This document shows positions 2,705 to 32,293 of a stretch of DNA of 64,000 nt, one piece after another (within the stretch, counting starts at the first letter, position 1; every line of letters starts with the position of its first letter). The translations under genes and the position numbers were made by a program. The stretch lies in sequence record PZ171032.1; one strand, written 5' to 3'. Below the pieces are notes generated by a model. The model had not been told where the DNA came from. It ran no database searches and saw nothing but the letters and a program-made list of their open reading frames with translations. Source of the DNA: a phage.

Positions 2705-3046
2705 CTACTCAAGGTCTTCAGAGTCAAGCTCAAAAAGAATCAAACTGTGCATGCCTGCAGAGAGATCAACACACCCTGCAACAATAAGGGTCTGATAGTA
2801 AGGTTCAGCACCCTCGATGTCTTCGTTAAAATCCACAACAAGGTAGTCACCTTTGTTAAAGGTGTATTTGTCCGATGTGAATGCAAAACCTGCCCAGTCC
2901 CCTACTGCAGGATCTTTATCAGTCACCTTTGTTAGCAGTAGATCTTTTTCACGAGATCTTTTAGTAAAATCGTGAATCACAACATCCTTCTCTTCAGGAG
3001 TTGGATTGCCACACACGTAGTTAACGATATTTCTCCACAAACTCAT
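2705..3046 (-). CDS. hypothetical protein
   Basis: 113-aa ORF; its start overlaps the helicase stop. Confidence 0.55.
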   Translation of the reverse strand: MSLWRNIVNYVCGNPTPEEKDVVIHDFTKRSREKDLLLTKVTDKDPAVGDWAGFAFTSDKYTFNKGDYLVVDFNEDIEGAEPYYQTLIVAGCVDLSAGMHSLILFELDSEDLE

Positions 3047-4413
3047 ACGTCCCCCTCTTCGGCTCTGGTTTCAAAATCTTTCCTGACAATTTTGTCTAAG
3101 TCAGGGAATGTTGTATTGTAAAACTCTACGACTCGCGGGTCAACAATAATGTCAACTTCTCTTAGTGGACGCAACAAGTTTATTCCTTGTATTGTCTTAA
3201 CTCTGCTCAAAGCGACATACGTCATCCCAGGAGAGAAAGCTCCGTTCTTTCCAAGGTCTAGGTTGTAACAATCTAGCGTAAGTCCTTGACTTTTATGAGA
3301 TGTTACGGCGTACCCAGATTTCAGAGGAAGTTGCTTGTATGACCCAATCACTACCCTCTCTATAAACTTCTCCATCTTCCTTTCTGCAATGTTGTATCTC
3401 TGAGATGGCTTATACTCGTTATTCTCCCACAACCTCTGCTCTATGTCAACCTGTGTTCCATCTTCAAGCTCTACCACCACCGCCTTGTTCTTAAATTTAA
3501 CAATTGTGGCACGTGTTCCGTTAACATAATAAGGTACTTTGTGCGTCGGGTCAACATCGTTGGCGGTTATCATAACTTTCATGCCAATTTTCAACTTCAT
3601 CTCCTGCTCAACTGGCAGGGTGGAGGGAAACTTACCCTTCATTTCCCCAGTGTATACCTTCTCCGGGGCGTTGATGGCATCATAGAACCTTCTGTTCACT
3701 TCCTCTGCTTGTTTGTTGGTGGCGCAAATTGTGAGAGCGTCTGTTGGTACACCGCCTTTGTAACAGCGAGCATTAAGTTCTGCTACAACCTCTTTTATGC
3801 GACGACCCTCACGAACACAGTTGAGCATTGTGGCAAATCGAATAGACTCCTGTCGGAACTGATCTATTAGGGCTATGTTGTGGAGGTCAAGCTCTTTCCA
3901 AGATTCGGTATAGCAACACAGGTCTGTATGGTAGAAGTTGAAGTAGGCTTCCTTCTCCATAGAAGAGACAACAGGAGGTGCCTGGTAAAAATCGCCAAAC
4001 AATATGACCTGTATGCCTCCGAAAGGTTTGTCATTTTTTCGAAGGAAGCGAAGTTTCCTATCCATCTCTATAAACTTATCAGCACGGATCATAGAGATTT
4101 CATCGATAATCAGGATGGTAAATGCCTTGCTTTTCAAAGGCTTTGCTGTTTTTGCCCTTATTGCGGTCCAGTCTGACTCCATGCTCACACCTGCTGCAAG
4201 ATCGAAGGTTCGGTGTGCTGTTGCTCCATTAACGTTTAAAGCGGCTACCCCTGTCGGGGCAACCGTTATGCAAGAGTCTCCATACATTGACTGGATCATG
4301 TTGATGAGGTACGTCTTCCCACAACCTGCGGGTCCTGAAACGAAGACATTCTCACCGCTCATGATTGCAACGAGGGCAGCATCTGTGCCTACATCATACT
4401 GCCCTTTTTCCAT
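3043..4413 (-). CDS. Dda/PIF1/RecD-like superfamily 1 DNA helicase
   Basis: Walker A 'VSGPAGCGKTY', Walker B 'ILIIDEISMI', and C-terminal 'SHKSQGLT' and 'YVALSRVKT' motifs typical of RecD/Pif1/Dda helicases. Confidence 0.88.
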   Translation of the reverse strand: MEKGQYDVGTDAALVAIMSGENVFVSGPAGCGKTYLINMIQSMYGDSCITVAPTGVAALNVNGATAHRTFDLAAGVSMESDWTAIRAKTAKPLKSKAFTILIIDEISMIRADKFIEMDRKLRFLRKNDKPFGGIQVILFGDFYQAPPVVSSMEKEAYFNFYHTDLCCYTESWKELDLHNIALIDQFRQESIRFATMLNCVREGRRIKEVVAELNARCYKGGVPTDALTICATNKQAEEVNRRFYDAINAPEKVYTGEMKGKFPSTLPVEQEMKLKIGMKVMITANDVDPTHKVPYYVNGTRATIVKFKNKAVVVELEDGTQVDIEQRLWENNEYKPSQRYNIAERKMEKFIERVVIGSYKQLPLKSGYAVTSHKSQGLTLDCYNLDLGKNGAFSPGMTYVALSRVKTIQGINLLRPLREVDIIVDPRVVEFYNTTFPDLDKIVRKDFETRAEEGDV

Positions 4414-4778: not shown

Positions 4779-5617
4779 ATGATTCGACCATCTTCTGCAA
4801 TCTGAATATCATTGGCCTGCATAAAATCGTAGAGCATGTTTACAGATTTTGCAGAAGGATTGCGTAGCAGGCGAACGAGGAATTTCACATAGCGGTCATC
4901 CAGCGTTCCGTCTGCATAATCTTTCTCAATTTTCTTTGCAATGGTGGATCGCATCTCTACACCGTAGTAGTAGAGCTTACCATCTTTCATGATCAGGTTG
5001 TCTGCAAGTGTGGTGAACTCATTCTTGCGTTCCAGCCAGACAAGGATTTCACCAATTGCCTCGTCATATTCCTGAACAGAGATATGGTCGAAGACTTTCT
5101 GGTAAACTTCCTCACTTTCGCTGCGGCGAATTTCAAAAATGCCTTCGTTGCAGGTGATCTGGAGGAGTTCCCCACAAATAACTACCAAAGGCTCGATGCT
5201 TCGAGTTTGTTGCTGAGACACACTGCTCACCACCTCCAGCACCGGATCTTTGACTTCTACTAAAGGTTCTTCTGACTTGATTGCCACCCCAGTGAACCCC
5301 ACACCGTGAACAACACACAGTGGGTATACCACGCCCCAACGTTTAACGGAACCTTCGCCTAAGTCTAAGATCATGGCGTACTTACCATTATCTTCCAATC
5401 CATAGCGGAATAAACGGGCCTCTTCGCGGGTTTCAAAATCCTCACGGGTGTAGCAGACGCTGTCACGGTCAGGATCGAACAACTCTGGGGCACCCACTGC
5501 CAGTGTCCAGGTTGTGTCGCCTTTCTCAATGGCACATGTGAAACCCTTCTTCTCAAGTTCTGCACGGCGGTCTCGTGCTTCTTTACGGGTTTTGAAATGT
5601 TCGTAGATGAAAATCAT
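4673..5617 (-). CDS. hypothetical protein
   Basis: 314-aa ORF; no recognised motif; the last ~35 codons overlap the 4413..4778 ORF. Confidence 0.55.
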   Translation of the reverse strand: MIFIYEHFKTRKEARDRRAELEKKGFTCAIEKGDTTWTLAVGAPELFDPDRDSVCYTREDFETREEARLFRYGLEDNGKYAMILDLGEGSVKRWGVVYPLCVVHGVGFTGVAIKSEEPLVEVKDPVLEVVSSVSQQQTRSIEPLVVICGELLQITCNEGIFEIRRSESEEVYQKVFDHISVQEYDEAIGEILVWLERKNEFTTLADNLIMKDGKLYYYGVEMRSTIAKKIEKDYADGTLDDRYVKFLVRLLRNPSAKSVNMLYDFMQANDIQIAEDGRIICYKGFSLTVASGWIGTVVKSHNTKVLLYPCLVTL

Positions 5618-5627
5618 CTTGGTCTCC

Positions 5628-7610
5628 TTATTTGATGTTATTCTTTGTATCGATCAGTTCACGGTATTCAATCATAGCAGGAGTGTCCCAATATTTCAAG
5701 CCCACATGCTTCAAAAGTGGATATTTCTTTTCCAATCTTGCAATATAGGCCTTTCCGCACTTAACCCGGTTGGCGATTAAGATTTTGGCACGATGATTTA
5801 GCTCACTGTGCTTCCACGCGGTGTTACCTTCCCACTTGTGGAAATGTGGCCGATAATTTCCAAAATCCTGCATGGGGATAATTTTCCCTAATTGTCTATA
5901 CAGGCTGTCATATGAAGTTTCATTTGCTGCGCGAGTCAGTAAGAATTTCCAGGCGTCCTCTTTCAACAAATGTTCCACATTTTTCTCTGTAACATACTGG
6001 CAATCAGGATCAGTCCAAAGCAGACGGGATTCTGATACCAGGTACAGGTCTTCCCCTTCAGGAATCTGGAGTGCCGCACGCACACGGTCATAATTTTGCT
6101 GGTAGATGTTACTCAGCTGTCCCAGCCAACAACTTCCACGTTGGATATCGCCCTCATAAGGAATGCAGTGCTTAATCTTCTTGAACTCTGCCTTAGTAAT
6201 ACGTTCACGACGGAAGTAACCATCCTTCTCAAGCTTTTTAACCCAATAACCTGGCTCGTAATGAGTTTTTGTTTCACCTTTCTTCGCAGGTCGGCGAGGG
6301 AGCTCTGATAACAATTTGACCGTATCTGCAAAGAACGGGTGGTGTGCCGCTTCTTTAAACTCTTCCACCAAATCCGTGTTACGGCAATAGAAAACGTTGC
6401 GTCCGGTGATCTCGCTTAAGTAGTTACACTTATTTCGGTTATATTTGCCGTCTCCGTCGTTAAACACTAAGTAGACCCCTCGTAAGAACTCCGACTTTCC
6501 GTAGCAGGCGTAACCTATGCGGCCTTTATTTAAGCCGCCAGCGAAGATCTCACAATCTCCCAAACTTCCTAGTCCTGTCTCTTCCCATCGGTCCCACATA
6601 AAATTCTTACCGAAGATGTGCCCGAACACTCCACTGTTCTTCATCATCTCACGTGCTTCTGAGGATGTTTTTGCTGTCTCCAATTCCGCAACAACTTCTG
6701 CCCCACGAAGACGGATACCCTCTTTGACAAAAGCCTCCAACCGCTCTTGGAATCCACCATCGTCGTGCCCCTCTATGGTCCATTCGCGCCCAGGGTTAAT
6801 ATTGCAATCCCCAATAGGGATCTCTACACAGATTGCAGGGTAGTCTGTCAATGTTTCCAGAAACTTAGAGCGGTAAGGTTGGTGTCCCATCACCACACGG
6901 CTCTCATCAGAGCTGGTATAACCTTTCAGGATAGTCATTTTCCAACCATCTTTCTCGTAGCGATACTGCGCCTCAACCTTGTCACCTTCCAGCATCTTAC
7001 TGGTCATAGGGTCGGTAACGGTAAACGGAAACTTTGCATAGCGTAGGCATGACGCAATAGCAGTGCGATATTTCAGAATATGCTCTTTCTTAACATGGAA
7101 CTGAACTTTTACCCCGTTGTGCTCTTCAGTCTTTCGCTCGCGGATCTTGGTAACGTTTGGGATACCCTGATCCAAGAACAATAGATATGTGCTTTCAACA
7201 CCATTGTGTACACTGATCACATCGAAAGTGTCCACCATGCTGAACGGGGCCTTTGAACCAACACCTTTATTACCCACCAGAGCGTTGCTGTTGCGCTTGG
7301 TTGACTCTCCGAGGTTCATGAAAGTGTTGCGGACCATCTCTTCTGACATGCCTAATCCAACGTCCTGCACAAAGAAGTATGGTTCAAGGTCTGTAGGAGA
7401 GTGAATGATGATCGGTACATCGCCCCGTCCAGACTCAACATGAGAGTCCACAGCATTGAAGATTGGTTCACGGCAGCTTGCCAGCACCTTATCTTCGTAA
7501 ATCCCTTTAATGATTAGCCCAAAAGTCTCTTTGTTCAGAGAAATTGAGCCCCTGGTGACCTCCATATTTCCAGTTAGCACTGCTTTAGTTTCATTACTGT
7601 TTACAATCAT
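5628..7610 (-). CDS. GHKL-superfamily ATPase, Hsp90-like N-terminal domain, with a large uncharacterised C-terminal region
   Basis: N-box 'EPIFNAVDS', G1 box 'QDVGLGMS', Hsp90-like 'NLGESTKRNS' and G2 box 'GNKGVGSKAPF' within the first ~130 aa; the remaining ~500 aa match nothing I recognise. Confidence 0.6.
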   Translation of the reverse strand: MIVNSNETKAVLTGNMEVTRGSISLNKETFGLIIKGIYEDKVLASCREPIFNAVDSHVESGRGDVPIIIHSPTDLEPYFFVQDVGLGMSEEMVRNTFMNLGESTKRNSNALVGNKGVGSKAPFSMVDTFDVISVHNGVESTYLLFLDQGIPNVTKIRERKTEEHNGVKVQFHVKKEHILKYRTAIASCLRYAKFPFTVTDPMTSKMLEGDKVEAQYRYEKDGWKMTILKGYTSSDESRVVMGHQPYRSKFLETLTDYPAICVEIPIGDCNINPGREWTIEGHDDGGFQERLEAFVKEGIRLRGAEVVAELETAKTSSEAREMMKNSGVFGHIFGKNFMWDRWEETGLGSLGDCEIFAGGLNKGRIGYACYGKSEFLRGVYLVFNDGDGKYNRNKCNYLSEITGRNVFYCRNTDLVEEFKEAAHHPFFADTVKLLSELPRRPAKKGETKTHYEPGYWVKKLEKDGYFRRERITKAEFKKIKHCIPYEGDIQRGSCWLGQLSNIYQQNYDRVRAALQIPEGEDLYLVSESRLLWTDPDCQYVTEKNVEHLLKEDAWKFLLTRAANETSYDSLYRQLGKIIPMQDFGNYRPHFHKWEGNTAWKHSELNHRAKILIANRVKCGKAYIARLEKKYPLLKHVGLKYWDTPAMIEYRELIDTKNNIK

Positions 7611-8107
7611 TTATTGCGCTCCTTGTAGTAGATATGACTCCCGAATTGAGCTGTCCTCTGCATCTTTTTTGCCCATTTCGGTCGTACTTTGGTCGTATGG
7701 TAGTGTGTTGCTCCACCTGTTATATCCATAGCCATGTATGCAACATGGTTGTTATTATAGACCTTTAGAAGCATCTTTGCAAGACTTTTAGCGTGATCCC
7801 ATGAATCTTTTTCTGTCACCTTAAAAGTTTTGCCGTAGTTTGTCCACGAAAACTGATTAGGTTGGTAGACAATCTTTCTTATAGTGTCCGGGTATTTGGG
7901 ATGAGATTTCCTGTTTAGGGTGGCAAACCCAGATGCCAGCATACCCATCGTGCCATCCCCTCTAGCTTCCCTGTAGATATTGCATGCTAGAATGTTTTCC
8001 TTAGTATCTGATGGCTTGCAAGTATGGTATACTTTTTGTTTTGGTGCTGCAACAACAGGCAGCGATAAAAATGCGCTCAAAATAATAGCAAAGATCTTAA
8101 TTTTCAC
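7607..8107 (-). CDS. secreted cell-wall hydrolase, SleB-type (Hydrolase_2 family); candidate endolysin
   Basis: N-terminal signal peptide 'MKIKIFAIILSAFLSLPVVAAP'; 'NIYREARGD...LNRKSHPKYPDTIRKIVYQPNQFSW' matches the SleB consensus (IYxEARGE...LNR...P.FP.TI..V..Q..QF). Confidence 0.7.
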   Translation of the reverse strand: MKIKIFAIILSAFLSLPVVAAPKQKVYHTCKPSDTKENILACNIYREARGDGTMGMLASGFATLNRKSHPKYPDTIRKIVYQPNQFSWTNYGKTFKVTEKDSWDHAKSLAKMLLKVYNNNHVAYMAMDITGGATHYHTTKVRPKWAKKMQRTAQFGSHIYYKERNK

Positions 8108-8156: not shown

Positions 8157-8537
8157 TTAATCGTAGTGTGCCAAAATCTCTCCATCGTTGCAAGTTCCCT
8201 CTACAAAGTTATGAAGATTCATGCACTCATCTTGATAGAAGAATTTACCGCTTTTCAGCCGTAGGCCAAACAACTCCGCATCTCCACGATGGCAAGCCTC
8301 TACAAGTTCATAGATTTCATACGGCAACTCTCCGTCGTCATGGAAGAATCCAGCCTTATCGTTGACATAAATGAAGAAATAATCACTGCTATCGCAAGCG
8401 TCCAATATTTTAAACCAGATTTCATCTACATCTTTTTCTCGGATATCGATCACGCAAGTGGAGCTGCATTCGTACTCCTTCTCCGGCTCCTCGGTCAATA
8501 CCACCAGGTAGTTTCCCCGCTTACCTACTTTAGCCAT
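8157..8537 (-). CDS. hypothetical protein
   Basis: 126-aa ORF, acidic and Cys/His-containing; no family recognised. Confidence 0.55.
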   Translation of the reverse strand: MAKVGKRGNYLVVLTEEPEKEYECSSTCVIDIREKDVDEIWFKILDACDSSDYFFIYVNDKAGFFHDDGELPYEIYELVEACHRGDAELFGLRLKSGKFFYQDECMNLHNFVEGTCNDGEILAHYD

Positions 8538-8546
8538 ACAACCCCC

Positions 8547-9731
8547 TTAAGCTTTAGCCAAAATGGCGCTAAACTCTTCACCAAACTCTTTTACAATCTT
8601 CATCAGGTTTGGGTATGCTTTGATCAACTGAGCAACAATCTTGTCACGCCCTTTACCGATAAGCAAGGCATTTCCTAAGGCGTTAGGTTTCATCATCGCC
8701 ATAAAGACTGAGAATACAAAATCTCGGTTCTCGTCCTTGAAATTTTCCCAAAGGAAATCGAGGAAGTTTGCCACACAGCTAACAAGATCTTCGTCGGAGA
8801 TACTTGCATTTTCCATCATATTGCGAATAGCGATACAACCTTCAGATCCAAGAATCCACAAAATGTCTGGCTGCTTAGGACCTACGTATTCTTTGCAGCC
8901 ACCTGCCATAATCCGACCGATTTCCGGTAAATTACGTTTCTTGGTGTGGTAAGTCCAGATCTCTACCGCTGCAGTGTGACCAATAGCACCTTGTAGAAGA
9001 ACACGGGCCATAGCGTCAGAAATAATACCGCTGTCAAAATCGTGCAAGATGTCAGATGCAGCAACCCAAGATCGCGGTGTGGCAAAAGATGGACAATTAA
9101 TCTCAGCCATAGCCTCATAATTATCAATAGCTGAGGGAACTCTTTTCAAATATCCAATTACAGAGGAATGCACCCCATTAAGGAATGCGTAGTCCTCAAT
9201 AAACACCTCTGCATTGCTTGTAACCTCTACAATGATAAAACGGTTAGCCAGAGGGGCTTCGAGCGCCGAAAGAACCGCACCATCTGTAGAACGGTTACCC
9301 GCAGCCACAAAAACAGAACCCTTAGGGAATGCATAGGTGCCGCACTTGTGGTCAAGCATAATTTGCATTGCAACCTTTTGCAGGTAGTTATCTGCATGAG
9401 TGAGCTCATCCAGAAAGATAATTCCGCTCCAGTCAGGATCCGCAGGCCAAAATTCTGGAATTGCAAACACTGTACGTGTAGTTCCATCCGCTTCTACAGG
9501 GATAGGTAGCCCAGATAAGTCGGCAGGATCTTTATCTGACAGTCGCACGTCAACAAGGTTGTCATCTCGCTCACCGAACATATTATCAGCGATCTGCTTC
9601 ATCACCTGGCTTTTACCCACACCCATTGGTCCCAAAATTAGGACAGATCGGCTATGACGTTGGGCAAACTGAATAATAGCTGGCAACTCACGGACAGTGA
9701 TTTGACCACTTTCGAATACGTTTCTTGACAT
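8547..9731 (-). CDS. AAA+ ATPase, MoxR/CbbQ-like
   Basis: Walker A 'LGPMGVGKSQ', Walker B 'IIFLDELTHAD'; size and layout typical of MoxR-type ATPases that partner with VWA proteins. Confidence 0.78.
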   Translation of the reverse strand: MSRNVFESGQITVRELPAIIQFAQRHSRSVLILGPMGVGKSQVMKQIADNMFGERDDNLVDVRLSDKDPADLSGLPIPVEADGTTRTVFAIPEFWPADPDWSGIIFLDELTHADNYLQKVAMQIMLDHKCGTYAFPKGSVFVAAGNRSTDGAVLSALEAPLANRFIIVEVTSNAEVFIEDYAFLNGVHSSVIGYLKRVPSAIDNYEAMAEINCPSFATPRSWVAASDILHDFDSGIISDAMARVLLQGAIGHTAAVEIWTYHTKKRNLPEIGRIMAGGCKEYVGPKQPDILWILGSEGCIAIRNMMENASISDEDLVSCVANFLDFLWENFKDENRDFVFSVFMAMMKPNALGNALLIGKGRDKIVAQLIKAYPNLMKIVKEFGEEFSAILAKA

Positions 9732-26831: not shown

Positions 26832-27098
26832 TTAAGCTTTTTGCTCTTCGTTTTTAACGTGGTCAGGGTGCTGGCAACCCCACCGGAGCGAGATGAATTT
26901 GCTAATAAGCTGGGGGCAGGCTACTGAAGGTGCATATATCCACGCATACCATTCAGGAAGCGTATCATTATACCCCATATGAATAAACACCCCAGTCATC
27001 ACCGCCATGCCTATGTTCGACCATAGCTTAGATTGGGATACTTTCGTAGGGTCATCAGATGCCGCAACCAGTCCCCATAAAAACTGAGTTAGTTTCAT
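26832..27098 (-). CDS. small membrane protein (holin-like topology)
   Basis: 88 aa with 2-3 hydrophobic segments ('FLWGLVAA', 'IGMAVMTGVFIHMGY', 'WYAWIYAPSVA') and a charged C-terminus; directly downstream of a fiber gene. Confidence 0.45.
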   Translation of the reverse strand: MKLTQFLWGLVAASDDPTKVSQSKLWSNIGMAVMTGVFIHMGYNDTLPEWYAWIYAPSVACPQLISKFISLRWGCQHPDHVKNEEQKA

Positions 27099-27109
27099 TT
27101 ACCCTCTTT

Positions 27110-28156
27110 TTAAGCATAAGATATAGTGATCCATTGACCGTTTACAAGTTTTTGGATAGCACCTGTCCAGTAATCACCTTGATAAGGGTGTTTATAAGCG
27201 TAGTTACCAGAGCACATCACATGTCCAGGGTAGACTCTTGACTCTCTGTAGGTGGTTTTGAAACGGTTCGCTATCCTTACATCGTCAACCCCTCTACTGG
27301 GCATAGGGACAGTAAGGTTACCACTACCGTCTGCGCTGTTACCGTTTACCCTGCGGACCACGTTTCTTCCACCAACGGTTGCATATTGGCCTCTAACGGT
27401 TTCATCGTTACAATCAACTCTTCCACCTATTTGAGCGCTTCCGCAGGATTGTTGTCCGTTAACAGTGGCTCTTGGTATCGTGACCGCATTGGCATTTGCA
27501 GAGGAACTTTTTGCATCGTTGCATTCAAGATTTCCTTGGATAGCCAGTCTTGCACGGTTGGCAGTTATAGCATTGAGCTTCATAGCCGAAAACACAGTCT
27601 GCCCACCAGAAGGTTGAAATCTCCAACGGAACCCGTCTATTTGGTGAGAAGGATCATCAAGGTCTGTGCCGTCAGCACCACCGATGTTGTCCATAATCCA
27701 GAAGTCCATCGTCGTCTTGTCTGGAGTTATGGTGGTATATATTGCCGCATTGTCTGTTGACGCAGATGCAAACTCGATTCTTTGAAGGCCTAAAGTTTGA
27801 GTCTGAGTCATTATGTCTCCAGACTTGTCAACATACAGATCGTCCATTTCTTCAGGCGAGTATACATTGAGAACTTGACGTGCAGCAGCTTTGTCTGGAA
27901 CGTCTGCTAGATTATTAGTGACCCTTAAGAATCTATTATCCCATCCTGGGACAACATCTTCTGTTAAATGCTTTAACCACGCAGAAAGCATGTGAAGTTC
28001 AAAGTTAACAACTTCACATGCCACTCTTTGTGTCATATCCCAACCTTTCAATCTCTCTTCTTTTTTTGGTTGAGACTTATTCAACTCTCCCGTATTTTCA
28101 AGCACAACATCCTGATTGGCCCAAATATCAAGAGGGATAACTGGTTTAGTCATCAC
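27110..28156 (-). CDS. tail fiber protein with P2 gpH-like C-terminal tip (paralog 2)
   Basis: 348 aa; C-terminus '...AIQKLVNGQWITISYA' resembles the conserved P2 H / Mu S tip ending; paralogous to 29168..30208. Confidence 0.7.
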   Translation of the reverse strand: MMTKPVIPLDIWANQDVVLENTGELNKSQPKKEERLKGWDMTQRVACEVVNFELHMLSAWLKHLTEDVVPGWDNRFLRVTNNLADVPDKAAARQVLNVYSPEEMDDLYVDKSGDIMTQTQTLGLQRIEFASASTDNAAIYTTITPDKTTMDFWIMDNIGGADGTDLDDPSHQIDGFRWRFQPSGGQTVFSAMKLNAITANRARLAIQGNLECNDAKSSSANANAVTIPRATVNGQQSCGSAQIGGRVDCNDETVRGQYATVGGRNVVRRVNGNSADGSGNLTVPMPSRGVDDVRIANRFKTTYRESRVYPGHVMCSGNYAYKHPYQGDYWTGAIQKLVNGQWITISYA

Positions 28157-28183
28157 GTTCTCCTGAGAAAATTCCTTAGGACT

Positions 28184-28212
28184 ATTTTAACACTTTAGGG
28201 AACAAAATGCAA
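28184..28212 (-). promoter_or_regulatory. sigma70-like promoter with extended -10 (TGnTAAAAT)
   Basis: On the minus strand: -35 TTGCAT, 17-bp spacer, TGT-TAAAAT; sits right after the 28212..28233 terminator and before the fiber gene. Confidence 0.4.
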
Positions 28213-28233
28213 GAACGGAGTCCTTTCCGTTCT
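28212..28233 (-). terminator. rho-independent terminator-like hairpin
   Basis: agaacgga-gtcctt-tccgttct 8-bp stem followed on the minus strand by TGCATTTTGTT. Confidence 0.45.
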
Positions 28234-28242
28234 GACCTTTGT

Positions 28243-28557
28243 TTACCTTTTACTATGCTCTACGAGCATGTGCAAAATCTTTTGTACATCGGCTCTGATG
28301 CCGGAGACATCTGTCCTGACATCCTGCTTAAGGTCGTTAATATCGGCCTCTAGCTTGCTTAACCGGGTCTCTATAACGGAATCAAGTTTATCTTTTGTAA
28401 CCATACTGTTTTTCACTAAGATGAGGTCTTTCTCCAGCTCATCCAACCTCTTGGAAATGCCTTTCCATTTGGTGTGCCACTGGTTGAAAGCCCATACACA
28501 GATCGGGACAACGGTACCCATGCAGATACCGTACAATGCCGCCAAATCCAACTCCAC
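28243..28557 (-). CDS. membrane-anchored coiled-coil protein
   Basis: 104 aa; N-terminal hydrophobic segment 'LAALYGICMGTVVPICVWAF' followed by a charged helical region. Confidence 0.5.
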   Translation of the reverse strand: MELDLAALYGICMGTVVPICVWAFNQWHTKWKGISKRLDELEKDLILVKNSMVTKDKLDSVIETRLSKLEADINDLKQDVRTDVSGIRADVQKILHMLVEHSKR

Positions 28558-28568
28558 AACACCTCCTC

Positions 28569-29153
28569 TTAGAGGGTAGGTCGCTCCGGGAAGAAAATGT
28601 CAGGGGCTTTAGATGTATCTATTTCAAGAAGTTTTACCCTGTACATTTTCAAATCTCTGATGTTACGTTTCTGGTCATCAGTAAGATCATATTCAAGGTC
28701 AATCATGTCTTGATAGGCACCAATTCTAGCAGTAGCCCAAGCAAGTTCTGTCTCTATGACACCCTCTGCCTGTTGAACAAAGAATTCATTATCTGTGACA
28801 AATTCATCACCAACTAAACGCAAAGCGTCGTGGTGAAGCATAATGTTTTCTGGTACCTCTTCTTTTTTGGCGATAACCACACGAAGACCTGGAGCAGGCC
28901 ATAAGGCATCAGGTTCTTCTGTAGATGTCTTAAGAATTCCCTTCTCGTCAACAAGTAGGAAGATACAACCCGGATTTTCTTGTCGCAATGTTCGTGACTG
29001 CACATACCAATCGCCATCATCATTACGTAAAAAATACCCAGTGTATGCGGTGTAATCCTCAACCTCTTGAGGGGTCAGCTCCTTGGTTTCCTTGTTGGCG
29101 TGGTATTCGCCAGATCCCGGTTGGTAAAGTTTAAACTCTTTAAGTATTTTCAT
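28569..29153 (-). CDS. tail fiber assembly protein (Tfa chaperone family)
   Basis: C-terminal 'LTDDQKRNIRDLKMYRVKLLEIDTSKAPDIFFPERP' matches the Tfa signature as recalled (a conserved Y-R, a D-x-S and an A-P-D-I ... P tail); immediately downstream of a gpH-like fiber. Confidence 0.75.
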   Translation of the reverse strand: MKILKEFKLYQPGSGEYHANKETKELTPQEVEDYTAYTGYFLRNDDGDWYVQSRTLRQENPGCIFLLVDEKGILKTSTEEPDALWPAPGLRVVIAKKEEVPENIMLHHDALRLVGDEFVTDNEFFVQQAEGVIETELAWATARIGAYQDMIDLEYDLTDDQKRNIRDLKMYRVKLLEIDTSKAPDIFFPERPTL

Positions 29154-29167
29154 GCTAGTCCTCCGAT

Positions 29168-30208
29168 CTATGCATAATTAACAGTGATCCATTGACCATT
29201 TACAAGTTTTTGTAAAGGTCCTGCCCAGTAAGTTGAACCACGCATCTCTTTTTTGTCACCGAAATGCCAGCCTGTGACAACGTAGCCGTTGCGGATTGGA
29301 GATTCAGAAACGCCGTCCACAAGTCTTGCACCGATTCTGATGTCTTGCACACCCGTCTGCGGGATAGTGATCGTTACATCACCGTTACCGTTAGCCGTCA
29401 CTCCGTTCACAGAGCGAACCACATTTCTGTTACCTACAACACAGTGCTGGCTTCTTACAACCATACTGTCACAACTTGCACCACCATTAACATATACTGA
29501 CCCAGCCGTCAACTGACTAGCCACATTACAGTTGGTGAATGTTGCGGTATTGCTGATAGTAAGGTTATTGCACCTCATGTTATCGACAACTTCAACATTG
29601 CCTACCACTTTCAACAGCGCACGGTTAGCCGTGATCGCGTTAAGGTACATCAAAGTGAACTCTGGATTAATATCCGGCTGAGTTGGCTGGAATCTCCAAC
29701 GAAACGCATCTATTGTAGATGTGCCACCATCATCAAACGACCCAAAATTATCACTTAACCCAAAGTCGAGAGTTGTCTTATCTGGGCCAATAGTTGTCTC
29801 TATCCAAGCCTTATCTGTCTCGGCAGCTTTAAAGTTGATACGTTGCAAACCCAATGGGCCTGTCATTGTATCACCTGTAACTTTTACATACCTAGCGTCT
29901 GCCTCTTCCTTAGTAATAATCCCAAGGTTTCTACGGGCAACAGGAATGTTCAAAAGATCACTCAAGTTATTATCACGTACCAGATAACGGCCTTCTTGAG
30001 CGGGGATCTGCTCGTCAGCAATGTATTTTGCCCAAGTCCCGAGCATATTGAAAATATAGTTAAGCTCTTCGCATGAGGGCTTTTGACCAAGATCCCAACC
30101 TTTTCTCCACAAATCATCAATCGGGCGTAGCCTGTTCTGTCTGTGGGTGTTAGGCAGAACCTGATCCTCCTCTGCCCAAATCTCTAATGGAAAACTAGGT
30201 TTTGACAT
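29168..30208 (-). CDS. tail fiber protein with P2 gpH-like C-terminal tip (paralog 1)
   Basis: 346 aa; C-terminus '...GPLQKLVNGQWITVNYA'; N-terminal and central regions align with 27110..28156. Confidence 0.7.
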   Translation of the reverse strand: MSKPSFPLEIWAEEDQVLPNTHRQNRLRPIDDLWRKGWDLGQKPSCEELNYIFNMLGTWAKYIADEQIPAQEGRYLVRDNNLSDLLNIPVARRNLGIITKEEADARYVKVTGDTMTGPLGLQRINFKAAETDKAWIETTIGPDKTTLDFGLSDNFGSFDDGGTSTIDAFRWRFQPTQPDINPEFTLMYLNAITANRALLKVVGNVEVVDNMRCNNLTISNTATFTNCNVASQLTAGSVYVNGGASCDSMVVRSQHCVVGNRNVVRSVNGVTANGNGDVTITIPQTGVQDIRIGARLVDGVSESPIRNGYVVTGWHFGDKKEMRGSTYWAGPLQKLVNGQWITVNYA

Positions 30209-30220
30209 TTTATCTCCTGA

Positions 30221-32293
30221 TTATGAGAAGTCTGGCGGGACAACATCTTCTACATACCCTTTCAGAGCAACCTGCCCCATATGAAGCACGGTAGAATCTC
30301 TAGCGGTAACAGTGATGCTGTCAGACATTACTTGCGGGTATGCCCACACATACTGTTTTACCTCAGGGTATCTATACTCTATAGTTGCCATGTTTCCGCA
30401 AATACATCTCCATAAAAATTCTTGGTAATTCCTAGTTGGGTCGTAGCCATATACCGGAGCAAGCTCTTTACTAGGAACGAACCCTGCAAGGTATTGTATT
30501 TCAGACGGTTGCCAACCTAACTTAACGATAGGTATGTTTACAGACTCTTTTGCCTTTTCAATACCTCCCTGCATCACCCAATCGTAGCACTCAGTGCAGA
30601 AGAAATCAAGAGCACCTGCTTCCTTTTTATATTGGTCAGCAAGGTTCAGCTTTTGCGTAAGCTCGGTTTCCATAATGGTTGGGAAAAACAGCAAAGCTGT
30701 CATCTGAGCTGATGCAGCGTGTGCTTTTATTGCCTTTGAAATAGCCGCAATACGAGCGCCAAGCTTACCACGACAAAATGCTACATACTTGTCGTAAACA
30801 CCGCCAGTTTTAGGATCGTCAATAGTCCCAATATCTAATGCATACTCGCCTGTCTCATCATAAAACGCCTGTTTTGTAGGGTAATCATAAATACAAGGTC
30901 TACGAGTATCGGTATTGTACCACCACCACGGTTCACCAACCTGCATAATCACTGGCAGGTTGTTTCTCATAGCGGCTGATGCAAAATTCTTAAATACTGC
31001 AGTAAGGAAATTCATACCCTCTTCAATGGTTGGAGACAGGAGGTAGCTACAAGGTGTATACCCTGTTTTAGCGTAGTTATCGTTCCAGTCTCTTTGGGTC
31101 CATTCCAACGGGCAGGCGTCGCTGAAAAGCTCAAAACTTACAGATTGCATAACGTCGAAGTTATGTCGTTTGGCATTGTACATAAAATCATCATGCCATT
31201 TATAAGCTGCAGCGTTTAGCGCTCCTGTTCTGTTTATAGACCATTGGGTTCCTGACCATGTGTAGTCATAATAATGACTCATACCAACATAATGGTTTAT
31301 GGTTCCGGTATAGCCCAGACGCTTGATATTGTTCAACACCCTTAAAGGAGACACGTTCCACATATCGTCATATGCGGTGCAGATCCCAACATCGTGCTCT
31401 TTAACCTGAATATTGTTAAGTTGCATCATTTTCCAGCCTGTGTCTGGCTGGAGCAGATCTAGGCGCAACTCACACTCTACATTTTCCGTTCTCGGGTCTG
31501 TGCTATTACTTACCCAGTCTTTAGGCATGAGCGGTATTAAAATCCTTCTCACCTGCCGAGGATCAACACCCATCATGTTGTTGTTCTGGTCCATCCCGAC
31601 GCAGTCCTCAAAATCAATATGAATTTCTGCAACATTCTTATCCTCTGAGATGCTGACAGCATATTGAGCTAAAGGAACATAGATGATTGTGCCATCAACA
31701 AGGTCTACAGTCATAATCATCTTTTCAGGAGTGGAGAAGTTGCTGGCGTTGGTTATTGACATTCTGAACCAAAGCTTGGTGTTTCTCATCTCATAGTGAT
31801 CATCAAACCCAATACCGAAATGGTCATACTTGTCAACTGTTTCCCAAATGCACCCAGCCATACCCCCATATGTTCTTGACACTAAACGGTTAATACAACA
31901 GTTGTTATCTGCAACAATACAGGTACTTTCAGTCTGCTGAGTAGTTGTAACCCAATACCTTGGGTGAAACATTCTCTCCTCAACAGTATCCCAAGATATC
32001 CTGTCAAGATTCTCATCTGAAACTATTGTACATTTCGCCCTTTGTGTTCCAATCATCACCCCTTGAGATTTTGATGAAAACTCCATAAAGAAGCTTCTTG
32101 GCAACCTGTTGGGTAATTTGTCAACAATTTCCACAGGGATCTCAATACTGGTTGCCCCAATTGGGATAGTTACATCGCCCTCAACATGATTATAATCCCT
32201 ACCAGGAACGGCAGTATCCTGAACTGTTCGGTAATGAAACTGTGCAGCCATTGTAGAGTAATCACGGTAAGGTTTAAAAACAGCTGTTGCCAT
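30221..32293 (-). CDS. baseplate/tail fiber-associated protein with possible glycoside-hydrolase-like C-terminal domain
   Basis: 690 aa; aromatic-rich C-terminal half ('GEPWWWYNTD', 'FFCTECYDW') reminiscent of carbohydrate-active enzymes; position between baseplate and fiber genes. Confidence 0.45.
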   Translation of the reverse strand: MATAVFKPYRDYSTMAAQFHYRTVQDTAVPGRDYNHVEGDVTIPIGATSIEIPVEIVDKLPNRLPRSFFMEFSSKSQGVMIGTQRAKCTIVSDENLDRISWDTVEERMFHPRYWVTTTQQTESTCIVADNNCCINRLVSRTYGGMAGCIWETVDKYDHFGIGFDDHYEMRNTKLWFRMSITNASNFSTPEKMIMTVDLVDGTIIYVPLAQYAVSISEDKNVAEIHIDFEDCVGMDQNNNMMGVDPRQVRRILIPLMPKDWVSNSTDPRTENVECELRLDLLQPDTGWKMMQLNNIQVKEHDVGICTAYDDMWNVSPLRVLNNIKRLGYTGTINHYVGMSHYYDYTWSGTQWSINRTGALNAAAYKWHDDFMYNAKRHNFDVMQSVSFELFSDACPLEWTQRDWNDNYAKTGYTPCSYLLSPTIEEGMNFLTAVFKNFASAAMRNNLPVIMQVGEPWWWYNTDTRRPCIYDYPTKQAFYDETGEYALDIGTIDDPKTGGVYDKYVAFCRGKLGARIAAISKAIKAHAASAQMTALLFFPTIMETELTQKLNLADQYKKEAGALDFFCTECYDWVMQGGIEKAKESVNIPIVKLGWQPSEIQYLAGFVPSKELAPVYGYDPTRNYQEFLWRCICGNMATIEYRYPEVKQYVWAYPQVMSDSITVTARDSTVLHMGQVALKGYVEDVVPPDFS

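Follow-up and report, generated by a model that had tools for sequence, protein, structure and literature searches.

A candidate holin and a candidate lysis regulator encoded among the tail fiber genes of an rV5-like phage

The 64,000-nucleotide stretch of phage DNA analysed here (sequence record PZ171032.1; "the window" below means this whole stretch) encodes, among tail fiber genes, two small proteins of 88 and 104 amino acids that are the orthologues of rV5 gp29 and rV5 gp31 and are so named in what follows. Relatives of both occur together in lysis cassettes of the Mu type, so the simplest reading is that gp29 is a holin and gp31 a lysis regulator facing the cytoplasm, the two being carried on a late fiber operon. 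The evidence is by association, and we put the chances of this reading at about even.

If it is correct, both proteins would be inner-membrane components of the lysis system that are expressed from the late tail-fiber transcript and not from beside the endolysin gene. With its two helices, both termini in the cytoplasm (N-in/C-in) and a charged cytoplasmic tail, gp29 would build up in the cytoplasmic membrane during late expression and would then form holes that give the soluble, lysozyme-type endolysin gp89 access to the cell wall. Tethered by its N-terminal helix and with its hairpin toward the cytoplasm, gp31 would modulate the process in the manner of a releasin or, as a timer, in that of an antiholin. 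The analysis shows that the two genes are real and conserved, how the proteins are built, their homology to proteins of lysis cassettes and that neither turns up in the virion data checked. Membrane insertion, topology, hole formation, the timing role and the partner enzyme are what we infer for this pair. A more specific form of the proposal, which we advance tentatively and rate on the doubtful side, is that PHROG 1322 (the family of gp29) is an unrecognised holin family, that gp31 is a distant releasin-like protein, that is, a membrane-tethered cytoplasmic coiled-coil protein, and that a protein with four transmembrane (TM) segments, encoded between them in most genera, is a third partner.

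Relatives of gp29 in Mu-like lysis cassettes

The 88-residue gp29 matches phrog_1322 with an E-value of 2.7e-32 (residues 1-87 on profile positions 1-86 of 87). A profile search started from rV5-type gp29 sequences found 72 representatives at 50% identity among 1.84 billion proteins, and all 71 of the representatives that were scanned match phrog_1322; three of the 71 also match DUF2644, weakly. Word-indexed homologue searches yielded close relatives only. PHROGs labels the family just 'membrane protein' and places it in the category 'moron, auxiliary metabolic gene and host takeover'. It has no holin annotation in Pfam, NCBIfam or PHROGs, and limited literature searches turned up no experimental test of any member. 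Two T4-like phages, Busanvirus ACP17 (positions 4926-5363 of its locus) and Menderavirus Moby (~5001-5321, ORF unannotated), have three-TM variants of the family as isolated genes that adjoin the DNA polymerase gene, on the opposite strand.

Hydropathy is weak in gp29 itself, where on the Kyte-Doolittle (KD) scale residues 25-43 reach about 1.05-1.27 and residues 50-71 about 1.0 (maxima over 17-residue windows [KD17], 1.27 and 0.95). Two segments of moderate hydrophobicity are kept in the family, with median KD17 maxima of 1.42 and 1.31 over 71 members. The helices are rich in Gly, Ala, Ser and Thr, the loop between them is acidic, and Lys and Arg are overrepresented at the N-terminus and behind the second segment; this distribution of basic residues, together with the acidic loop, fits an N-in/C-in protein with two helices rather than three. 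The C-terminal tail of gp29 is charged (RWGCQHPDHVKNEEQKA) and the tails of the family are polar or charged and 10-60 residues long. Some distant members have an additional N-terminal TM domain.

Profile-profile alignment (hhalign) joins the rV5-type family to 63 members from Mu-like phages with 98.7% probability (E 1.8e-16, 70 columns). Both sides share a motif S-H/Q-T/S-K-L/F-W-x-N followed by helix 1, a short acidic loop and helix 2, after which come K-F/W-I/L-x-L-R/K-Y/W-G and a polar or charged tail. What surrounds the Mu-like genes? In Ralstonia phage RS138 a late activator and an endolysin come before the family member (ORF27), and an Rz-like spanin with embedded o-spanin comes after it; Pseudomonas phage Bise has Mor and an M15 peptidase ahead of the family member (80 amino acids) and, behind it, an i-spanin with embedded o-spanin and then a 92-residue TM/coiled-coil protein. 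A scan of IMG/VR with a four-sequence alignment gave 80 loci, mostly on contigs of 35-40 kb, and the open reading frame (ORF) of the member could be called in 75 of them. In 74 of these 75 an upstream ORF ends at or just before the start of the member and an ORF of 165-245 amino acids with an N-terminal TM helix (spanin-like) begins at its end.

The upstream ORFs, 43 after de-duplication, were classified by Pfam as Amidase_2 (10), VanY/Peptidase_M15 (10), Phage_lysozyme (1), Glyco_hydro_19 (1) and CHAP (1), to which inspection of motifs adds six lambda-R-like transglycosylases and four of the RS138 endolysin type. At least 33 of the 43 distinct ORFs are peptidoglycan hydrolases, and these are of seven or more unrelated types. 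The Amidase_2, VanY/M15 and RS138-type endolysins have no N-terminal hydrophobic segment, and in the lambda-R-like group moderate hydropathy lies in a conserved part of the catalytic domain and is not an export signal. Muralytic enzymes without export signals need a hole-forming partner, and in 63 of the 75 loci no other small same-strand ORF nearby has two or more hydrophobic segments. Genes of a single family lying between muralytic enzymes of many unrelated types and the spanins are what one classically expects of a holin.

Architecture and relatives of gp31

The 104-residue gp31 matches phrog_5345 over its full length (E 1.1e-48). Its residues 3-24 are hydrophobic (19-residue Kyte-Doolittle mean 1.9), and an AlphaFold2 model with a mean predicted local distance difference test (pLDDT) score of 88.6 consists of two long helices, 5-49 and 55-103. 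This bears out the sequence-only reading, made earlier from this DNA, in which the protein had an N-terminal membrane anchor followed by a coiled coil. Acidic residues (E2, D4) precede the membrane helix and basic ones (K30, K32, K36, R37) follow it, so that by the positive-inside rule an N-out/C-in protein with a cytoplasmic coiled coil is predicted. From the model, gp31 is a membrane helix running into a helical hairpin that probably faces the cytoplasm.

Proteins of this kind recur in the Mu-like cassettes. By a crude filter, about 35 of the 75 Mu-like loci encode, just after the spanins, a protein of 80-125 amino acids with an N-terminal TM domain and a charged helical domain. In where they are encoded and how they are built, these post-spanin proteins correspond to the Mu gp25 releasin. 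When the gp31 family was aligned by hhalign with a 12-sequence group of such post-spanin TM/coiled-coil ORFs of about 100 residues, the probability was 90.6% (E 1.3e-6, 84 columns); the score of 39.2 compares with a mean of 13.6 (standard deviation 2.8, maximum 21.3) for 100 architecture-preserving shuffles. With the family of Mu gp25, the releasin of Mu, the alignment extends over the full length and is marginal (62%, E 7.8e-5, 99 columns); in local mode it reaches 41% and a score of 27.1, shuffles giving a mean of 11.2 and a maximum of 18.8. Single-sequence hhalign scores of gp31 with Mu gp25 resemble those of spanin controls, such single-sequence controls not being equivalent to profile controls. 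We therefore treat gp31 as an equivalent, in architecture and position, of the loose post-spanin group and not as a member of DUF2730; it lacks the position of a releasin, because its gene comes after the fiber chaperone gene. The RS138 cassette has no N-terminal-TM coiled-coil protein. Two genes after its spanins is ORF30 (73 amino acids, positions 6023-6244 of the locus), in which the architecture is inverse, the TM helix being C-terminal and preceded by a coiled coil.

Searching BFVD with the fold of the gp31 model retrieved generic helical hairpins only, none at E <= 0.001, and sequence searches of PDB gave nothing other than coiled-coil noise. We also considered gp31 as an i-spanin and rejected this: the predicted topology is the opposite of N-in/C-out, hhalign scores with four i-spanins are low (9.6-19.4), and there is no o-spanin partner, the sole same-strand ORF that overlaps the 104-residue ORF (28416..28562) having no lipobox.

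The fiber locus and alternative readings

Every gene in this part of the window is on the minus strand, and the features of the locus are, in transcription order:

30221-32293, minus strand: lateral fiber protein of 690 amino acids with a TIM-barrel domain, first in order
29168-30208, minus strand: STF1, a short tail fiber (STF) protein of 346 amino acids, second in order
28569-29153, minus strand: fiber chaperone of gpU/Tfa type, 194 amino acids, third in order (Pfam Caudo_TAP [PF02413] E 8.5e-12; phrog_136 E 7e-37)
28562..28568, minus strand: Shine-Dalgarno sequence GAGGAGG, separated by 4 nt from the GTG that starts the 104-residue ORF, read from the sequence
28243-28557, minus strand: 104-residue ORF, the rV5 gp31 orthologue (PHROG 5345), candidate lysis regulator (releasin- or antiholin-like), fourth in order
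28212..28233, minus strand: terminator-like hairpin, an 8-bp stem followed by TGCATTTTGTT, a putative terminator from pattern scan and sequence
27110-28156, minus strand: STF2, a short tail fiber paralogue of 348 amino acids, fifth in order
27102..27107, minus strand: Shine-Dalgarno-like AGAGGG, 3 nt before the ATG of the 88-residue ORF, read from the sequence
26832-27098, minus strand: 88-residue ORF, the rV5 gp29 orthologue (PHROG 1322), candidate class II-type holin, sixth in order
downstream of the 88-residue ORF, minus strand: fiber protein of 581 amino acids, then one of 1878 amino acids, last in order
7607..8107, minus strand, elsewhere in the window: SleB-type cell wall hydrolase, rV5 gp2 (Pfam Hydrolase_2 E 4e-19)

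Both small ORFs lie where the sequence-only reading had placed them, and they are real, conserved genes, as good ribosome-binding sites, tight packing against their neighbours, widespread homologues and full-length PHROG matches attest. The AGAGGG of the 88-residue ORF comes close after the stop codon of STF2 (27110-27112) and the GAGGAGG of the 104-residue ORF stands directly after that of the Tfa gene; the GTG start of the latter ORF matches the N-termini of family members. The hairpin sits in the 86-nt gap between the 104-residue ORF and the STF2 gene. In the rV5 paper both genes fall within a predicted transcription unit (rV5 genes 27-81) that carries structural genes. Over 5.3 kb, 118 records of rV5-like Escherichia phages (genus Vequintavirus) match the locus at 97-98% identity. 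It is of interest that 16-21 records named 'Campylobacter phage' (MG0656xx and others, host C. jejuni) are ~97% identical to the E. coli rV5-like locus; their host label looks doubtful. Another record, OR062943, labels the 88-residue ORF (2833-3099 of its locus) 'tail fibre assembly protein similar to phi92 gp144', a name that no chaperone family model backs.

With tblastn, homologues were found in 374 phage records for the 88-residue protein and in 224 for the 104-residue protein. Both occur across all genera of Vequintavirinae, and the 88-residue family also in phi92-like phages/Phapecoctavirus and in Aeromonas phages; both genes are core and syntenic across Vequintavirinae and phi92-like phages. 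STF and Tfa are followed by the 104-residue homologue, a four-TM protein of about 155 residues, the 88-residue homologue and a fiber gene in PVP-SE1 (Seunavirus), PcCB7V (Certrevirus), Mydovirus, Henunavirus and Serratia phage Kashira, and the first two of the small genes overlap there. The four-TM gene (phrog_7451) is present in 110 records, none of them rV5-like; its slot is occupied in rV5-like phages by STF2, behind the 86-nt hairpin-bearing spacer (window 27110-28242), which suggests a gene replacement specific to Vequintavirus. The phi92-like phage Eryne has the 88-residue homologue between a fiber gene and a baseplate wedge gene and, after the chaperone gene, a 113-residue TM/coiled-coil protein with the position and architecture of gp31 that matches the gp31 family profile weakly (phrog_5345 E 0.0018).

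The other lysis genes of rV5-like phages are scattered. According to the rV5 paper the endolysin is gp89, of T4-lysozyme type and encoded outside the window; the LysECP26 paper likens the lysis spectrum of the rV5-type endolysin to that of LysPA26, which is without a signal-anchor-release (SAR) domain. According to the CB7 paper, CB7, rV5 and PVP-SE1 have their spanin genes (Rz/Rz1) next to that of the large terminase, the spanins of rV5 being gp66/67 beside TerL; as the same paper says, the missing lysis cassette makes the holin hard to find. The SleB-type hydrolase has a classical cleavable Sec signal peptide (MKIKIFAIILSAFLSLPVVA|AP), and the 3' end of its gene overlaps the start of the downstream rIIA (5628-7610) by 4 nt; coupling of a secreted muralytic enzyme to rII genes is unusual. 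The hydrolase is a possible partner of gp29 and gp31 in the lysis system, not adjacent to them. That no holin sits beside it, as the sequence-only reading had said, we confirmed, there being no small membrane ORF or other lysis gene next to it. As a reason for giving the pair a lysis role this is weak, the enzyme being Sec-secreted and not the recognised endolysin of rV5; the proposal that the pair are lysis-timing components draws its support, by association, from sequence relatives in the holin position and the post-spanin position of Mu-like cassettes instead.

Several points weigh against a holin and its regulator. In the first place, the genomic setting of this phage is not that of lysis genes: gp29 and gp31 have fiber genes as neighbours, with endolysin gp89 and spanins gp66/67 elsewhere, and the holin assignment rests on gene position in distant homologues (~35-40% identity). 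The argument from the holin slot is not automatic in Mu-like phages either, because Mu itself lyses without a holin (PMC9239132). In the second place, gp29 does not look like a textbook holin. A scan by the rV5 authors with TMHMM/Phobius found no TM domain in gp29 and one in gp31 (the PVP-SE1 record gives one for its gp29 homologue), and 34 of the 75 Mu-like members lack any 17-residue window at KD >= 1.5. Of the two or three TM segments and charged C-terminus ascribed to gp29 in the sequence-only reading, the charged C-terminus thus stands and the segments come down to two weakly hydrophobic helices. Neither gp29 nor its homologues in PVP-SE1 and phi92-like phages have a Pfam match at E <= 1, NCBIfam gives none for gp29, and no curated holin model in either fits. 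Homology with T7 gp17.5, suggested by an L-x-E-W-F/Y motif, was rejected (BLASTP E 0.32, no PF10746 match), and an AlphaFold2 model of gp29 (14-sequence alignment) has a pLDDT of 58, unusable for a fold search. There are also rival candidates. The rV5 paper, having found no holin homologue, proposed gp129 on topology alone, and in BASEL phage Bas58 the 123-residue Bas58_0116 (MZ501073 86794-87165; locus 8295-8666), from a small-ORF region, is annotated 'putative holin' and has two strongly hydrophobic N-terminal TM domains and then a 70-residue soluble tail. Finally, as regards gp31, hhalign links it to the Mu gp25 family at only 41-62%, and coiled-coil composition inflates such scores; no match to PF10805 (DUF2730) was found at E <= 1 in Pfam, where Mu gp25 itself scores E 2.5e-13; and gp31 is strictly syntenic with the gene for the fiber chaperone, in phi92-like phages too, whose gp29 homologue is four genes away; this synteny also fits a fiber-related role.

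Are these then morphogenetic proteins? They could be non-virion, membrane-anchored helpers of fiber or baseplate assembly, gp31 acting with the gpU-like chaperone and gp29 serving STF2 or the next lateral fiber. This we consider unlikely. It would explain why both genes lie within the fiber/baseplate module in every genus examined, the gp31 gene always directly after the Caudo_TAP chaperone gene, phi92-like phages included, and the GenBank name mentioned above points the same way. Like known chaperones (CB7_32), moreover, the two proteins go undetected in virions. The virion proteome of Certrevirus CB7 includes the fiber proteins on either side (CB7_31, 36 and 37), while CB7_32-35 went undetected (CB7 paper); to judge from synteny with PcCB7V, these four are the chaperone plus three small proteins of the membrane. 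No tryptic peptide of gp29 or gp31 turns up in the mass spectrometry supplement for rV5, and a 2026 cryo-electron microscopy (cryo-EM) paper on phi92 makes no mention of gp144, gp148 or gp149, nor do gp144 and gp149 figure in its model. This non-detection in virions, like the core and syntenic nature of the two genes, counts in favour of the lysis reading as well. However, neither ORF matches Caudo_TAP (PF02413), a PHROG tail-assembly family or any chaperone model, whereas the adjacent 194-residue ORF does, and weak coiled-coil matches to fibritin-type families are generic noise (E ~1e-3). Members of the gp29 family are, besides, found far from fiber genes in Mu-like phages, between endolysin and spanin; those of T4-like Busanvirus and Menderavirus adjoin the gene for DNA polymerase, and in phi92-like phages the gene that comes after the homologue is one for a baseplate wedge and not for a fiber. 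The rV5, CB7, BASEL, phi92 cryo-EM and CRISPRi-ART papers yielded no functional data on these genes.

A variant, only slightly less likely than assembly factors, keeps the association with lysis and denies that gp29 is the holin: it would be an antiholin, a pinholin-like depolariser or an endolysin regulator, with another protein (gp129, Bas58_0116 or the four-TM protein) as the hole-former, or with SleB-dependent lysis. Its weakly hydrophobic, Gly/Ala/Ser-rich helices do resemble domains of SAR or pinholin type more than canonical holin TM domains. Other candidates with two TM domains are present in these genomes, sister genera have the four-TM gene between the 104- and 88-residue homologues, 12 of the 75 Mu-like loci hold another small multi-TM ORF, and Mu shows that lysis control without a holin exists (PMC9239132). 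Nevertheless, no small protein other than the family member has two hydrophobic helices in the cassettes of the remaining 63 of the 75 loci, whose endolysins are soluble. The four-TM gene is missing from all rV5-like genomes and so cannot be the universal holin, and gp129 and Bas58_0116 lie in a small-ORF region and were picked on topology alone.

That gp29 and gp31 are superinfection-exclusion or host-takeover morons which block related phages at the inner membrane, like T5 Llp or T4 Imm/Sp, is very improbable: the PHROGs category, the encoding of small membrane proteins beside receptor-binding proteins and the absence of both from virions in the data checked (CB7, rV5) would suit it, but the genes are core and not accessory (all Vequintavirinae genera and phi92-like relatives, in fixed positions) and are tightly translationally coupled, with no promoter signal of their own, expression from the structural (late) unit would come too late for exclusion, a PADLOC scan gave only coiled-coil noise (E >= 1.5e-3), and homologues are located in lysis cassettes. 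The sequence-only reading had offered both exclusion and fiber assembly as alternatives, and neither gained positive support from Pfam, the CB7 virion proteome or PADLOC.

Holins are well known, also ones displaced into fiber operons; what would be new is the assignment of this widespread unannotated family and, possibly, the spread of releasin-like proteins to virulent myoviruses. Should gp29 and gp31 be a holin and a releasin-like protein, releasin-type control of lysis would extend from transposable phages to large virulent myoviruses, and it might be tied to the Sec-secreted SleB-type hydrolase beside rIIA/rIIB. PHROG 1322 is also suggested to be a holin family that many Mu-like prophages use. 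Among E. coli phages the rV5-like ones are some of those most frequently isolated, and they are therapy candidates; their published holin candidates were picked on topology alone; confirmation would improve the annotation of lysis genes in several hundred phage genomes and give handles for engineering the timing of lysis.

Comparison with known lysis systems

The closest known counterparts of gp29 are the uncharacterised PHROG 1322 proteins, for example RS138 ORF27 and the 80-residue protein of Bise. Their genes lie between endolysin and spanins, whereas that of gp29 lies between short and lateral fiber genes. The S21 pinholin of phage 21 resembles gp29 in having two helices, at least one of them weakly hydrophobic and Gly/Ala/Ser-rich, the N-in/C-in arrangement that is predicted for gp29 and a charged tail. 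Pinholins, however, pair with SAR endolysins and the gp29 family pairs with soluble ones in Mu-like phages; sequence similarity, compared via Pfam only, gave no match.

Precedents for the arrangement proposed here are found in T7 and T4. The T7 class II holin gp17.5 (Phage_holin_2_2) is, like gp29, small with a charged C-terminus, and its gene directly follows tail fiber gene 17; the spanin genes of T7 are, as in rV5, beside terminase. In T4 the tail fiber operon 34-38 ends with gene t, which comes after gene 38, so that there, too, the holin gene is on a late fiber transcript apart from the endolysin and spanin genes. T4 has rI/rIII and rIIA/B, and rV5 encodes rIIA/rIIB (rV5 gene 1 and its neighbour). 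The T4 holin T is itself a protein of 218 amino acids with one TM domain and a large periplasmic domain, and it is not known to resemble gp29 or gp31.

For gp31 the model is Mu gp25, the releasin, a membrane-tethered cytoplasmic DUF2730 protein with N-out/C-in topology that is required for release of the Mu SAR endolysin (PMC9239132). According to Chamblee et al. the gp25 family occurs only in transposable phages, including some with soluble endolysins (PMC9239132), whereas the phage that encodes gp31 is virulent and not transposable. Nor has a SAR endolysin been identified, because the SleB-like enzyme has an ordinary signal peptide. The cytoplasmic domain of gp31 is charge-neutral where that of gp25 is anionic, and the gp31 gene is not within five genes of an endolysin. 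In several features gp31 is like gp25: it has about 100 residues, an N-terminal TM domain, a predicted N-out/C-in topology and a helical cytoplasmic part, the marginal profile-profile alignment is collinear over the full length, and the two have a Y-A/V-S/T-K/R-D/E turn motif in common.

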